This document shows positions 50,358 through 52,145 of a stretch of 64,000 nt of DNA, one piece after another. Below the pieces are notes generated by a model. The model saw only the letters and a program-made list of their open reading frames with translations. It searched no databases and was not told the DNA's origin. This DNA comes from Escherichia coli. GTDB lineage: Bacteria; Pseudomonadota; Gammaproteobacteria; Enterobacterales; Enterobacteriaceae. The translations under genes were made by a program, and so were the position numbers. The stretch lies in assembly GCF_016903815.1 (NCBI RefSeq), contig NZ_CP069973.1; one strand, 5' to 3'. The number at the start of each line of letters is the position of its first letter. Positions within the stretch are counted from its first letter, which is position 1.

Positions 50358-52145
50358 ATGGCGAAACTGATAAATGTATCGGCGTCCACTGAGGAGAGAA
50401 TGACGTCCGGGGAGAGGAGGGTGGCTTCACGACTGGAGAGCTTTCTGAATGATGATTGCTTTGTCTGGTACGATATCCCGGTGGGACGGAAAAACCGACA
50501 TCCGGATTTTGTCATTATTGACCCGGATAACGGGCTGGTATTTCTGGAGGTCAAGGACTGGACTGTATCCACATTACGTAAAGCAAATCAGGAGCAGGTT
50601 ACACTGGAAACCGACGGTCTTCTGAAATCAGAAATAAATCCGCTGGTACAGGCTCGTCGTTATGCATGTGATACGGTTAATGCCTTACCTGCTGACCCGT
50701 GCTTACGGCAGAATGACGGTCAGTATAAGGGGCGGCTGAACCTGGCCTGGGCGTATGGTGTGGTGTTCACCCGCATTACCCGTCAGCAACTGAAGGCACT
50801 GACAGGGAATGATGAGAATGCGGTGGAAAAGATTTTTCCTTCAGCACAGACAATCTGTCAGGATGAAATGACGCAGTCTGTTTTACCTGAGATATTCCGG
50901 CAAAAAATTGCCGGGATGTTTACCACGGGATTCAGAACCCAGGTGACACCCCGGATGAGAGATATTCTGCGCGCCCATCTGTTTCCTGAAGTGACCGTAA
51001 AACAGAACTCACAAATCAAAATCATGGATATTCAGCAGGAGATTCTGGCCAGAAATATTGGTGACGGGCATCGTGTCATTCATGGTGTGGCCGGCTCCGG
51101 AAAAACCATGATTCTTTTATTCCGTTGCCTTTACCTGGCTGAAACCACGCCCGGAAAGATTCTGGTGCTGTGCTACAACATTACTTTGGCCAGTTATCTG
51201 CGGGAATGCATTGATGTCAGAGGGCTGACGTCACGGGTTACGGTATCTCATTTTCACAGCTGGTGTGCCTCAATGATAAAACGCCACGGTATTCAGGTGA
51301 CGGCTGACAGAAAGGATTACCCGGAGAAATGCTTCAGCACACTGGAAGAGGCTGTGAACAGCGGGAAAATCACCGACGCCGGATATGATGCTGTACTGGT
51401 GGATGAAGGGCATGATTTTGACAGTCGCTGGCTGGCCCTGATTGCCCGTCTGTTTGATAACGCATCCCGTTCACTGCTCCTGATGTACGATGATGCCCAG
51501 TCCATTTATCGGCGGGAGCGGGCTCTGAACTTTTCTCTGGCCAGTGTGGGGATTCAGGCGCAGGGACGCACTTCTGTCCTGCCGGTCAATTATCGTAATC
51601 CGAAACGCATTCTGCACTTTGCTTATGCATTCTCTCGCGAGTATTTTGAAAAACATCAGAACCGTGAAATACCACTTGTTCAGCCACAGGCAGGCGGTGA
51701 AGAGGGTACAGAGCCGGAAATCCTGCATTGTGCTTCTGAACGTGATGAAGCCAGACAGGTTGCAGACTGGCTGGAGAAGTGCCATGCCCTGTGCGGTCAC
51801 TGGAGTGATATGGCTGTGCTGTGTCCGACAGAGCATTCAGCGAAACAATTGCAGGACGTTATGACACAACGCGGGATGCCTTTTGCCACCTGTTTTGACA
51901 GGGAAGGCAAGAAGGCATACTCGCGACGTAAGGATGTGGTGCATTTACTGACATATCAGAGCAGTAAGGGGCTGGAGTTCCCGTATGTGGCGGTTATCAA
52001 TGCGTCTTTCATTCCTTCTGGTGTAGCGGATGAGTCTGAAGTAATCCCGGTGCTTTATGTGGCGTTCACCCGGGCAACCCGTGAATTACTGGTGACCTGT
52101 TACCGTGAAAACAGTATCAGTCGTCACCTTGAGGATTTTGCATAA
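50358..52145 (+). CDS. NERD-domain nuclease fused to a UvrD-like SF1 helicase (595 aa); candidate anti-phage defence protein
   Basis: N-terminal PD-(D/E)xK-like DFVIIDPDNGLVFLEVKDW; Walker A GVAGSGKT; Walker B VLVDEGHDF; C-terminal FTRATREL. Confidence 0.8.
   Translation: MAKLINVSASTEERMTSGERRVASRLESFLNDDCFVWYDIPVGRKNRHPDFVIIDPDNGLVFLEVKDWTVSTLRKANQEQVTLETDGLLKSEINPLVQARRYACDTVNALPADPCLRQNDGQYKGRLNLAWAYGVVFTRITRQQLKALTGNDENAVEKIFPSAQTICQDEMTQSVLPEIFRQKIAGMFTTGFRTQVTPRMRDILRAHLFPEVTVKQNSQIKIMDIQQEILARNIGDGHRVIHGVAGSGKTMILLFRCLYLAETTPGKILVLCYNITLASYLRECIDVRGLTSRVTVSHFHSWCASMIKRHGIQVTADRKDYPEKCFSTLEEAVNSGKITDAGYDAVLVDEGHDFDSRWLALIARLFDNASRSLLLMYDDAQSIYRRERALNFSLASVGIQAQGRTSVLPVNYRNPKRILHFAYAFSREYFEKHQNREIPLVQPQAGGEEGTEPEILHCASERDEARQVADWLEKCHALCGHWSDMAVLCPTEHSAKQLQDVMTQRGMPFATCFDREGKKAYSRRKDVVHLLTYQSSKGLEFPYVAVINASFIPSGVADESEVIPVLYVAFTRATRELLVTCYRENSISRHLEDFA

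Follow-up and report, generated by a model that had tools for sequence, protein, structure and literature searches.

A NERD nuclease-UvrD-like helicase fusion in an eroded T6SS locus of Escherichia coli: a candidate stand-alone defence protein

The NERD-UvrD locus

The window, that is, the whole stretch of 64,000 nucleotides of Escherichia coli DNA that was analysed, contains a complete and undisrupted ORF in which a NERD-type nuclease is fused to a UvrD-like helicase (Table 1). The gene is an accessory gene of E. coli. In RefSeq, the CDS is started at the second ATG (window position 50400), which yields a protein of 581 aa. The first ATG (50358) is the better start, because Met1-Ala2 are at least 90% conserved among homologues of the NERD+UvrD family, the first 14 codons are kept in the alignment of E. 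coli, a plasmid copy and Dryocola, and a Shine-Dalgarno sequence (AAGGTG, 50347-50352) lies 5 nt upstream. When compared with other E. coli alleles, the ORF of the window gave a dN/dS of 0.16-0.17 (0.10-0.21 across all three regions of the protein), which points to purifying selection in each of the three, and no single hypervariable 'sensor' patch was seen among the differences.

Table 1. Coordinates of the NERD-UvrD gene and neighbouring features in the window.
Feature	Position	Strand	Description	Basis
IS3-family transposase fragment	50015..50257	+	C-terminal fragment	ORF translation; RefSeq 'integrase core domain-containing protein, incomplete'
Retained native 5' leader	50263..50357	+	~95 nt	Aligned with EAEC-042-type and 1070/13 loci
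Hairpin and T-run in 5' leader	about 50288-50340	+		Terminator-like matches
NERD-UvrD fusion ORF	50358..52145	+	595 aa plus stop, ATG start	ORF list
NERD-type PD-(D/E)xK nuclease core	50358..50687	+	aa 1-110	
Family-specific alpha/beta region	50688..51017	+	aa 111-220, between nuclease and motor	Alignment, model
Compact SF1A UvrD-like helicase core	51018..52142	+	aa 221-595	Pfam, motifs, Foldseek
Pseudogene of 101-aa ORF	52211..52487	+	3' of helicase gene	29-bp deletion (alignment); RefSeq 'frameshifted'
vasL/tagA	52539..55084	+	T6SS accessory (ImpA_N + VasL), IS2-split	RefSeq annotation of identical locus
vasL halves	52539..52979 and 54356..55084	+		
IS2 inside vasL	53070..54343			

Homology to the EAEC-042-type and 1070/13 loci begins about 95 nt 5' of the ATG. 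Upstream of the gene, the + strand of the window contains terminator-like matches only and no sigma-70-like promoter, an observation that counts against a defence role. The IS3 fragment, whose exact junction recurs in 357 complete E. coli genomes, marks a deletion of the T6SS core genes and of a PD-Lambda-1-like gene that are present upstream in other strains. With the T6SS core lost together with the PD-Lambda-1-like gene and the promoter context 5' of it, expression in the window strain is uncertain. On the 3' side, the small pseudogene corresponds to an ORF that is intact in other E. coli and has no Pfam or PADLOC match. EAEC-042-type loci carry an intact 455-aa VasL gene at the place of the IS2-split one, and the helicase-vasL junction occurs in 477 complete E. 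coli genomes. The first-pass annotation had placed the gene between IS fragments in an island, and the IS3 fragment and the IS2 copy within vasL bear this out. Its description of the gene as isolated understates the setting: the gene has long resided at the tssE-vasL junction, in a T6SS cluster that has eroded here.

Domain architecture and predicted structure

The earlier claim that a NERD PD-(D/E)xK nuclease and an SF1 helicase are joined in one polypeptide was confirmed, with the Pfam domains and motifs all present. The strings quoted in support of it were located in the 595-aa translation at residues 50-68 (DFVIIDPDNGLVFLEVKDW), 242-249 (GVAGSGKT), 346-354 (VLVDEGHDF) and 569-576 (FTRATREL). 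With scores well past chance level, Pfam assigned NERD to residues 17-108 (2.7e-10), UvrD-helicase to 233-315 (2.5e-7), AAA_19 to 226-385 (5.8e-7), UvrD_C to 407-511 (5.3e-9) and 522-583 (7.9e-6), and UvrD_C_2 to 528-579 (9e-7). The predicted catalytic residues of the NERD core are E19, D50 (50505-50507), E64 (50547-50549), K66 (50553-50555) and Q98. The helicase motifs comprise Q227, Walker A (51084-51107), Walker B (DEGHD, 51402-51416), motif III (D378/Q381), motif IV (R413), motif V (K537/G538) and motif VI (T571/R572). Among 63 full-length homologues (27-59% identity), D50, G243, G246, G248, K249, D349, E350, Q381, R413, G538, T571 and R572 were invariant, while E64 and K66 were at least 90% conserved. 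The middle region, which no family covered in the Pfam search, has conserved residues of its own (G134, D169-E170, W185, D202 and R205) and was modelled with confidence (pLDDT mostly at least 90).

An AlphaFold2 model of the whole protein reached a mean pLDDT of 91.8 and a pTM of 0.89. Its best Foldseek matches were UvrD, PcrA and Rep (E 7e-19, TM 0.52), in agreement with the sequence search of the PDB. Judging from length and secondary structure, the helicase appears to be without a 2B domain and to have a 1B domain cut down to two helices (299-334). Motifs and model together suggest that the gene encodes a self-contained, ATP-driven nuclease-translocase.

Family identity and comparison with known systems

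The protein was matched almost end to end by the PADLOC model PDLC01087 'C3a187 NERD+UvrD', with residues 1-594 aligned to positions 1-556 of the 559-position profile (E 4.2e-140, 466 bits). Furthermore, the separate pieces of the protein (aa 1-215, 216-595, 216-317, 318-441 and 442-595) each matched this model best. C3a187 denotes type III CRISPR-associated accessory cluster 187, represented by Dole_0738 (Shah et al., 2018). In a figure legend from 2023, UvrD and NERD are listed with other putative CRISPR auxiliary genes, and the family was apparently flagged as type III CRISPR-associated again in that year. The label 'uncharacterised' attached to the gene in the first-pass annotation is therefore half right: no experimental test of the family was found, and the family had already been catalogued as C3a187 'NERD+UvrD' (Shah et al., 2018; PADLOC). 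The E. coli protein shares the domain order and size of C3a187, and in Nostoc a homologue with 38% identity is indeed preceded by type III-B cmr genes. In contrast, no type III CRISPR-Cas locus lies beside the E. coli gene, the annotated 64-kb region contains no cas genes, and the family is found mostly without them.

Validated systems include NERD and other PD-(D/E)xK nucleases paired with helicases. Among these comparisons, a likeness to Nhi had been proposed for the present gene. Nhi and Nhi-like proteins are defined by an N-terminal nuclease and a DUF2075/PF09848 (Schlafen group 3) helicase, and Nhi-like has been listed with a NERD domain (Millman et al., 2022). For Nhi of Staphylococcus epidermidis, degradation of phage DNA after sensing of replication complexes that contain phage SSB has been proposed (Bari et al., 2022). 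These proteins and the E. coli protein have a common layout: a single chain begins with a PD-(D/E)xK-type nuclease and continues into an SF1 helicase. However, PF09848 gives an E-value of 0.023 here (14.4 bits), whereas the UvrD families give 1e-7 to 1e-9. Matches to the PADLOC Nhi model (PDLC02372) are confined to Walker A (the P-loop, 13.6 bits) and Walker B (12.2 bits), and with E allowed up to 10 there is still none in the first 215 aa. Nhi and the NERD-UvrD protein are thus analogous, with homology not reaching beyond the P-loop.

GajB of Gabija is the best match to the motor part among named defence helicases in PADLOC (E 5.9e-20), and in both systems a UvrD-type SF1A core serves a nuclease. 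Nevertheless, the matches, to several GajB profiles, are partial and span no more than stretches of the helicase; GajB also lacks a NERD domain and depends on GajA. No GajA match was obtained in eight nearby ORFs searched singly (48065..49032, 55276..57979 and 58348..60252), and the immediate neighbours of the gene are the IS3 fragment, the small pseudogene and vasL. Hhe did not hold as a relative: the listed PADLOC matches, both for the full protein and for its sub-segments, include no Hhe model, and Hhe combines a helicase with a Vsr endonuclease, whereas the nuclease here is NERD. The RTasNERD-Hel cluster of PADLOC, a NERD-helicase cluster associated with UG34 reverse transcriptases (Mestre et al., 2022), has the same order of NERD and helicase and gives a weak profile match (1.6e-15 overall, 2e-5 for the N-terminus). 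It is, however, a separate and smaller family (519-position profile) defined by the adjacent UG34 reverse transcriptase. No reverse transcriptase adjoins the E. coli gene; the only such genes in the region are that of a group II intron, found about 9 kb downstream, and a fragment within the grp operon. With eukaryotic immune proteins of the Schlafen 11/12 type, also a nuclease and an SF1 helicase, identity is 7-14%; Schlafens cut RNA and belong to another helicase clade, and the likeness may be limited to a common PD-(D/E)xK-like core and a P-loop motor. The DefensePredictor 'NERD' system DS-26 (WP_054626965.1) was considered and set aside as unrelated, being a 532-aa Upx-like protein without a helicase.

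Orthology to a housekeeping helicase, raised at the outset as a possible objection, was not found. None of the NCBIfam models for UvrD, Rep, PcrA, HelD, helicase IV, RecB and AddA reached its curated cut-off. The best score was 67 bits for PcrA against a cut-off of 911; UvrD gave 48 (cut-off 1144) and RecB 20 (cut-off 696). RecB and AddA likewise combine a UvrD-family SF1A motor and a PD-(D/E)xK nuclease in one chain, and AddA is among the Foldseek matches (E 3e-11). In contrast to the 595-aa protein, their nuclease is C-terminal, they are about 1200 aa long and they act in RecBCD or AddAB complexes; NCBIfam scores for the two were 20-30 bits, with cut-offs of about 700.

Distribution and genomic neighbourhood

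The family is large and taxonomically broad, with 568 clusters at 50% identity (E<=1e-30) across Proteobacteria, Bacillota, cyanobacteria and methanogens. In E. coli, 1047 of 5426 complete genomes (19%) carry the gene, and 614, about 1 in 9, have at least 80% of it; DNA identity among the alleles is 80-100%, and in at least 41% of carriers the gene is partial through disruption by IS66 or IS3. Homologues occur in 143 plasmid records, and the copies on conjugative IncF plasmids adjoin RelE/NadS and ArdA. Across 75 diverse loci, drawn from beta-, gamma- and alpha-proteobacteria, Bacillota, cyanobacteria and Methanoregula, no conserved partner gene was found. The gene is thus accessory, moves horizontally and has no obligatory partner. 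Three metagenomic representatives (P0125, P0129 and P0193) lie on contigs too short for their neighbourhood to be read. A kinase plus a second helicase was also considered as a general pair of partners and rejected, as this arrangement was found only in Ralstonia and one Comamonadaceae genome.

Defence genes adjoin the NERD-UvrD gene in several independent contexts. EAEC-042-type E. coli have a PD-Lambda-1-like gene (5e-88) and Kiwa KwaA/KwaB nearby, the Kiwa system lying just past vasL, and the window itself retains a Shango SngC remnant 7 kb from the gene. Elsewhere, homologues were found near type II CBASS and an integrase (Serratia), type I-E cas genes (Salmonella), a type II methyltransferase and PDC-S31 (a Vibrio conjugative plasmid) and a PD-T4-6-like kinase (Ralstonia), while in Nostoc PCC 7524 type III-B cmr genes lie immediately upstream. 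Other surroundings count against a defence role: many homologues stand amid ordinary metabolic genes, as at locus L094, beside fosA in K. pneumoniae and in K. aerogenes, and in 114 Ralstonia megaplasmid records the gene occupies one conserved position. A Pfam census of 150 neighbour ORFs returned many ordinary genes among its 20 most frequent families, a list in which single defence genes are not visible.

Interpretation and competing explanations

The best, though unproven, reading is that of a stand-alone defence protein targeting nucleic acids, to which we assign a somewhat better than even chance. Under this reading, the protein would act alone in innate immunity against phage or other invading DNA. 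Its motor would load onto the single-stranded DNA of ends, nicks or replication intermediates, track 3'->5' as do UvrD, PcrA and Rep, and pass the DNA on to the nuclease, which is fused N-terminally to motor domain 1A. By analogy, this feeding logic would be that of RecB/AddA, albeit with nuclease and motor in the opposite order, and that of the single-protein systems Nhi and Hna. The enterobacterial gene would then be cargo at the tssE-vasL junction, often beside a PD-Lambda-1-like gene. In addition to the points already noted, two observations weigh against this reading: no phage or plasmid restriction phenotype was found in the literature for any NERD+UvrD member, and the DefensePredictor supplementary tables do not contain the accessions of the E. 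coli protein that were searched for (WP_001564039 and WP_001390303).

An unlikely alternative, yet the one that fares best, is an enzyme of repair, recombination or element maintenance, i.e., an accessory helicase-nuclease of RecB/AddA-like or NucS-like kind that would act on breaks, stalled forks or mismatches on behalf of the host or of its carrier island or plasmid. The nearest solved structures (UvrD, PcrA and Rep), the housekeeping neighbours of many chromosomal homologues, the stable position in Ralstonia megaplasmids and the plasmid copies near umuDC and an SOS-response peptidase are all consistent with such a role. However, PD-(D/E)xK folds and UvrD cores are common to repair and defence enzymes, so structural matches do not discriminate between the two, and for none of the named repair helicases does the protein come near the NCBIfam cut-off. 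In E. coli the gene is patchily distributed and often inactivated, and the family recurs next to defence systems in contexts unrelated to one another; both points also speak against repair.

The position of the enterobacterial gene, often 3' of a PD-Lambda-1-like gene, calls for separate consideration. In Escherichia, Dryocola, Pantoea and Yersinia, it sits within a T6SS cluster, flanked by tssE and vasL/tagA, and in Pantoea and Yersinia the helicase and vasL ORFs overlap. Identity among NERD-UvrD orthologues is 59-61%, within the 37-83% spanned by the flanking T6SS proteins; the gene has co-diverged with these and is thus an old resident of the cluster. Judging by gene order and the locus tags of tssE and tagA, EC042_4548 would be the NERD-UvrD gene. 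A reporter inserted behind EC042_4548 in EAEC requires RfaH as well as ops elements belonging to the sci1 operon. The 'ops2' element published for RfaH (GGTAGNNT) is absent from the 4547-4548-equivalent intergenic region of locus L088 and from the window upstream of the gene; its only + strand match falls within codons 22-24 of the 042-type allele, where the window reads GGTGGCTT.

These features raise the prospect, distinctly unlikely in our estimate, that the protein is an accessory component of the sci1-type cluster, co-expressed with tagA/vasL and no general anti-phage protein, which might process DNA, e.g., damage from incoming nuclease effectors or the DNA of killed prey. The junction shared by four genera could mean such a T6SS-related job, and to that extent counts against defence. 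The ORF overlap, the old residence, the helicase-vasL junction kept in E. coli, the RfaH/ops-dependent reporter (equated with the gene here by gene order) and a VgrG gene about 5 kb downstream in Ralstonia and one Burkholderiales genome point in the same direction. Nevertheless, a clear T6SS gene occurs within 10 kb in only 1 of 80 genome loci plus a few extra loci, and a second match, on metagenomic contig L093, is marginal (E 3.7e-5). The same clade is found without a T6SS in Salmonella, Serratia, K. aerogenes and plasmids, and the ORF is intact in the window and the 357 genomes with the same junction although the T6SS core is gone. Furthermore, Pfam revealed no T6SS domain, PAAR, MIX or Rhs marker in the 595-aa protein, and no literature linking NERD proteins to T6SS was found.

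It is quite improbable that the protein is a partner-dependent effector, one that needs type III CRISPR-Cas, a PD-Lambda-1-like T5orf172 protein or, in Ralstonia, the kinase and second helicase, and that would be inert as the lone gene of the window. Such dependence is suggested by the definition of C3a187 through type III CRISPR adjacency, by the Nostoc homologue directly 3' of cmr genes, and by the kinase and NERD-less helicase 3' of the gene in Ralstonia and one Comamonadaceae genome. The T5orf172 gene lies 5' of the helicase gene in E. coli, Serratia and Yersinia; between E. coli and Serratia, the T5orf172 proteins are 73% and the helicases 65% identical, and in Serratia the pair left the T6SS context together. 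Against this stand the 75 loci, across which no neighbour is conserved, and the occurrence of the gene without T5orf172 in Pantoea, Dryocola, Salmonella, K. aerogenes and plasmids. Moreover, in the 357 E. coli genomes that lost the T5orf172 gene, the ORF is still intact and under purifying selection, and no CARF, SAVED or other signal-sensing domain was detected by Pfam in the 595-aa protein.

Very improbable, finally, is a T6SS-coupled immunity module, long kept between tssE and tagA/vasL, RfaH-controlled with the operon and turned on alongside contact-dependent killing, that would destroy phage, plasmid or prey DNA after lysis of a neighbour, in which case the PD-Lambda-1-like gene and the Kiwa system beyond vasL would be part of the same embedded defence slot.

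Implications

The placement of the gene within T6SS clusters poses the question of whether these operons serve as a stable home for defence cargo or whether the enzyme serves the T6SS itself. Were the immunity module coupled to the T6SS, an offensive weapon and nucleic-acid defence would be functionally tied. The stand-alone defence reading can be tested easily, as the gene is compact (1.8 kb) and offers clear catalytic residues for mutation. If that role is confirmed, a UvrD-type motor without a 2B domain would join the few single-protein nuclease-helicase defences, such as Nhi and Hna, and a very widespread protein would pass from a database label to a working immune system.

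Gene structure and domain architecture

The NERD-UvrD reading frame is uninterrupted over 595 aa and contains all the motifs quoted in the first-pass annotation. The layout proposed there, a NERD nuclease with an SF1 helicase, was borne out by Pfam, which places NERD at residues 17-108 (2.7e-10) and reports UvrD-helicase, AAA_19, UvrD_C and UvrD_C_2; this pattern is evidently not due to chance. RefSeq annotates the identical gene as WP_001564039.1, named '3'-5' exonuclease', and the RefSeq/PGAP CDS begins at the second ATG, giving 581 aa. The first ATG is preferred here because residues 1-2, Met-Ala, show at least 90% conservation among 63 distant homologues, the nucleotide sequence of the first 14 codons is kept in Dryocola, a plasmid copy and other E. 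coli, and AAGGTG stands 5 nt upstream. The conservation indicates that the 595-aa form, rather than the shorter one, is the real product.

In an alignment of 63 full-length relatives (27-59% identity), D50, the Walker A residues G243/G246/G248/K249, the Walker B residues D349/E350, and Q381, R413, G538, T571 and R572 were invariant, while E64, K66, Q98 and Q227 were at least 90% conserved. The protein thus retains an intact PD-(D/E)xK site and all seven SF1 motifs. AlphaFold2, run with this alignment, yielded a confident single-body model (pLDDT 91.8, pTM 0.89). Modelled alone, the N-terminal 220 aa adopted a restriction-endonuclease-like fold (pLDDT 89.9); residues 111-220 make up a conserved, family-specific region. 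The solved structures nearest to the motor part were UvrD, PcrA and Rep (Foldseek E 7e-19). The helicase part comprises only ~375 aa, and its secondary structure suggests a motor that would lack the 2B domain and have a 1B domain of two helices only.

Family identity and distribution

The PADLOC model PDLC01087 ('C3a187, NERD+UvrD') spans the protein end to end (E 4.2e-140). The label derives from cluster 187 (representative Dole_0738) of Shah et al. (2018), found among genes adjoining type III CRISPR-cas cassettes, and Altae-Tran et al. (2023), in a figure legend, count UvrD and NERD as putative CRISPR auxiliary genes. In Nostoc sp. PCC 7524, a homologue with 38% identity lies on plasmid pNOS7524.01 directly 3' of a type III-B cmr2-cmr6 module, which directly confirms the CRISPR association behind the PADLOC name. 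The runners-up in PADLOC were GajB profiles (6e-20), restricted to the helicase part, followed by a UG34-associated NERD-helicase profile (1.6e-15). Nhi and Nhi-like proteins are defined by a nuclease joined to a DUF2075/PF09848 helicase. Since PF09848 is not significant here (Pfam E 0.023) and the PADLOC Nhi profile reaches the P-loop only, the suggested likeness to Nhi is one of layout and not of ancestry. The gene is thus a clear member of a family that had already been catalogued, so that the description 'uncharacterised' holds for experiment alone.

Among 1.84 billion representatives, clustered at 50% identity and searched at E<=1e-30, the family comprises 568 clusters, most of them ~600 aa and collinear. 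A one-genome-per-species scan found 80 loci in beta-, gamma- and alpha-proteobacteria, Bacillota, cyanobacteria, Nitrospirae and Methanoregula; no full-length homologue was found in the phage genomes of the collection searched. Within E. coli, a match was present in 1047 of 5426 complete genomes and covered at least 80% of the gene in 614. DNA sequence divergence between alleles reaches ~20%. In O157:H7 (island OI-122), IS66 breaks the gene at nucleotide 797; some lineages have it interrupted by IS3. The dN/dS ratio of 0.16-0.17 is similar across all three regions, and intact copies represent a working gene under purifying selection. Copies on conjugative IncF plasmids adjoin a RelE/NadS pair, umuDC and ardA. 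The gene behaves as an accessory, mobile one.

Ralstonia and a single Comamonadaceae genome alone have a kinase and a second, NERD-less helicase after the gene, perhaps as a multi-gene form of the system. There, the three genes downstream encode a Ser/Thr kinase, a UvrD-like helicase of 378 aa without NERD, and a hypothetical protein. The kinase is PD-T4-6-like (1.7e-30) and also matches the CRISPR-accessory 'C3a189 kinase' model. This arrangement occurs in 114 Ralstonia megaplasmid records, with a VgrG gene ~5 kb further on.

Association with type VI secretion clusters

In EAEC-042-type E. coli, the gene order is tssM, tssA, tssF, tssG, tssJ, tssE, ydcA, T5orf172, NERD-UvrD, a 101-aa ORF, vasL, Kiwa kwaA and kwaB, ibrA-like, ibrB-like and perC, followed by a second T6SS cluster. 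The T5orf172/MUG113 (GIY-YIG-like) protein, 414 aa long, aligns with the C-terminal half of PD-Lambda-1 (5e-88); it is 73% identical between E. coli and Serratia, compared with 65% for the helicases, and its gene may be a functional partner or a second, linked defence gene. NERD-UvrD also lies between tssE and vasL in Dryocola (59% identity), in Pantoea vagans pVag1 (61%, ORFs overlapping) and, with a T5orf172 fragment, in Yersinia pseudotuberculosis. The 59-61% identity of these orthologues falls inside the range of the flanking T6SS proteins (TssA 57-63%, TssF 61-80%, TssG 48-71%, TssJ 48-59%, TssE 76-83%, VasL 37-46%), so that the gene has long resided in clusters of this type and did not enter them recently. 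In Serratia, T5orf172, NERD-UvrD and a 5' vasL fragment lie outside any T6SS, with a type II CBASS and an integrase as neighbours; given the vasL fragment, which in Serratia marcescens is a 77-aa ORF, the block was seemingly carried from a T6SS cluster into this island.

A 2025 EAEC preprint describes EC042_4547 and EC042_4548 as 'accessory genes' of sci1, with transcription beyond EC042_4548 requiring RfaH and two ops elements. From gene order, we infer that EC042_4548 is NERD-UvrD. The published 'ops2' motif GGTAGNNT was not found in the intergenic region or leader before the gene. Its sole plus-strand copy lies within codons 22-24 of the 042-type allele, where the window allele reads GGTGGCTT. 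A conserved hairpin and T-run precede the start codon by ~20-70 nt.

The island in the window

The window lies within a large island beside cadC. Its contents from ~1 to ~47900 follow the annotated identical region of E. coli 7/2. It begins at cadB/cadC, followed by a CP4-like element end (CbtA/YeeU toxin-antitoxin, antirestriction protein, DUF4942/DUF932 proteins), pseudouridine utilisation genes and a complete grp glycyl-radical propanediol microcompartment operon, with a short reverse-transcriptase-domain ORF between grpP and grpO.

The helicase-vasL junction is retained in 477 complete E. coli genomes, the T5orf172-helicase junction in 140, and the window's own arrangement in 357. In the latter, an IS3 transposase fragment replaces all upstream sequence except a ~95-nt leader; the window has lost T5orf172, and IS2 interrupts vasL. 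The gene had been described as isolated between IS fragments, which fits the IS setting but says too little of its context as an old tssE-vasL resident. The small downstream ORF, absent from the Pantoea, Dryocola, Yersinia and plasmid copies, carries a deletion here, with NERD-UvrD still intact. A 235-aa ORF without Pfam or PADLOC match occupies the vasL-ibrA slot that holds kwaA/kwaB in EAEC-042-type islands, and may be swapped defence cargo. The block of ibrA-like, ibrB-like and PerC-family regulator genes 3' of vasL is kept in all E. coli island versions examined. About 7 kb from NERD-UvrD, an ORF that RefSeq names as an incomplete 'ATP-dependent helicase' is a truncated Shango remnant, the C-terminal third of SngC (PDLC03960, 1.4e-71, profile positions 468-719 of 720).

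Coordinates of the NERD-UvrD gene, its neighbours and related loci
Feature	Record	Coordinates	Strand	Remark
Hairpin and T-run	window	50288..50340
NERD-UvrD gene	window	50358..52145	+	first ATG
RefSeq/PGAP start	window	50400		second ATG
101-aa ORF	window	52211..52487	+	29-bp deletion
235-aa ORF	window	55276..55983	+	37% GC patch
IbrA-like PAPS-reductase/DUF3440	window	56124..57356	+	weak BrxP, DndC profile matches
IbrB-like ParB-type protein	window	57341..57979	+	overlaps IbrA-like gene
SngC remnant	window	59428..60252	-	274 aa
T5orf172 gene	L088 (EAEC-042-type E. coli)	8563..9807		directly 5' of NERD-UvrD
GGTAGNNT copy	L088	10063..10070	+
T5orf172 gene	L105 (Serratia)	5677..6921		directly 5' of NERD-UvrD
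VasL/ImpA_N N-terminal fragment	L105	8811..9044		after NERD-UvrD
T5orf172 fragment	L106 (Yersinia)	6538..6924		directly 5' of NERD-UvrD
Nostoc locus	L101	52..10869
Ralstonia locus	L097 (Ralstonia solanacearum megaplasmid)	9001..14783
Locus with kinase and second helicase	L018	10001..15949

Functional interpretation

On balance, NERD-UvrD is probably a stand-alone DNA-targeting immunity protein, a reading held with restrained confidence. Its neighbours include defence systems, either validated or candidate, in at least seven settings unrelated to one another: PD-Lambda-1-like, Kiwa and the Shango remnant in E. coli, and elsewhere CBASS, type I-E CRISPR (3 kb from the cas genes in Salmonella), type III-B CRISPR, a methyltransferase with PDC-S31 on a Vibrio plasmid, and the PD-T4-6-like kinase. 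Moving 3'->5', the UvrD-type motor would feed DNA into the NERD nuclease attached to motor domain 1A at the N-terminal end. Such a mechanism would resemble that of RecB/AddA, although the domain order is reversed, and would parallel the action of Nhi and Hna.

Many homologues lie in housekeeping neighbourhoods, which counts against a defence function, and the neighbours in K. aerogenes and K. pneumoniae look ordinary. An accessory repair or maintenance enzyme is unlikely; orthology to a housekeeping helicase was not upheld, no NCBIfam named-helicase model coming near its cut-off. Long residence between tssE and vasL would suit a T6SS-linked role, which we regard as quite improbable; the Serratia copy stands outside such a cluster, and no link between NERD proteins and T6SS was found in the literature searched. 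Least probable is an effector whose partner is now absent from the window: T5orf172 is lost there, and in an all-against-all comparison of six genes on each side no gene family was common to more than five loci, showing that the gene has no obligatory partner.

For the immunity protein, a further weakness is the promoter-less appearance of the window copy, ahead of which no promoter was recognisable. No phenotype was found in the searched literature, and the DefensePredictor supplementary tables did not contain the accessions searched for the E. coli protein. The defence neighbours and the accessory, mobile behaviour stand, and the original claim of a strong candidate is better worded as a sound one. 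The family is catalogued and experimentally untouched, and its design is close to that of known single-protein nuclease-helicase defences without homology to them; the gene is therefore a sound and easily testable candidate rather than a surprise. Its one feature that may be unexpected to specialists is that it sits stably, alongside further defence genes, inside a T6SS operon of enterobacteria.
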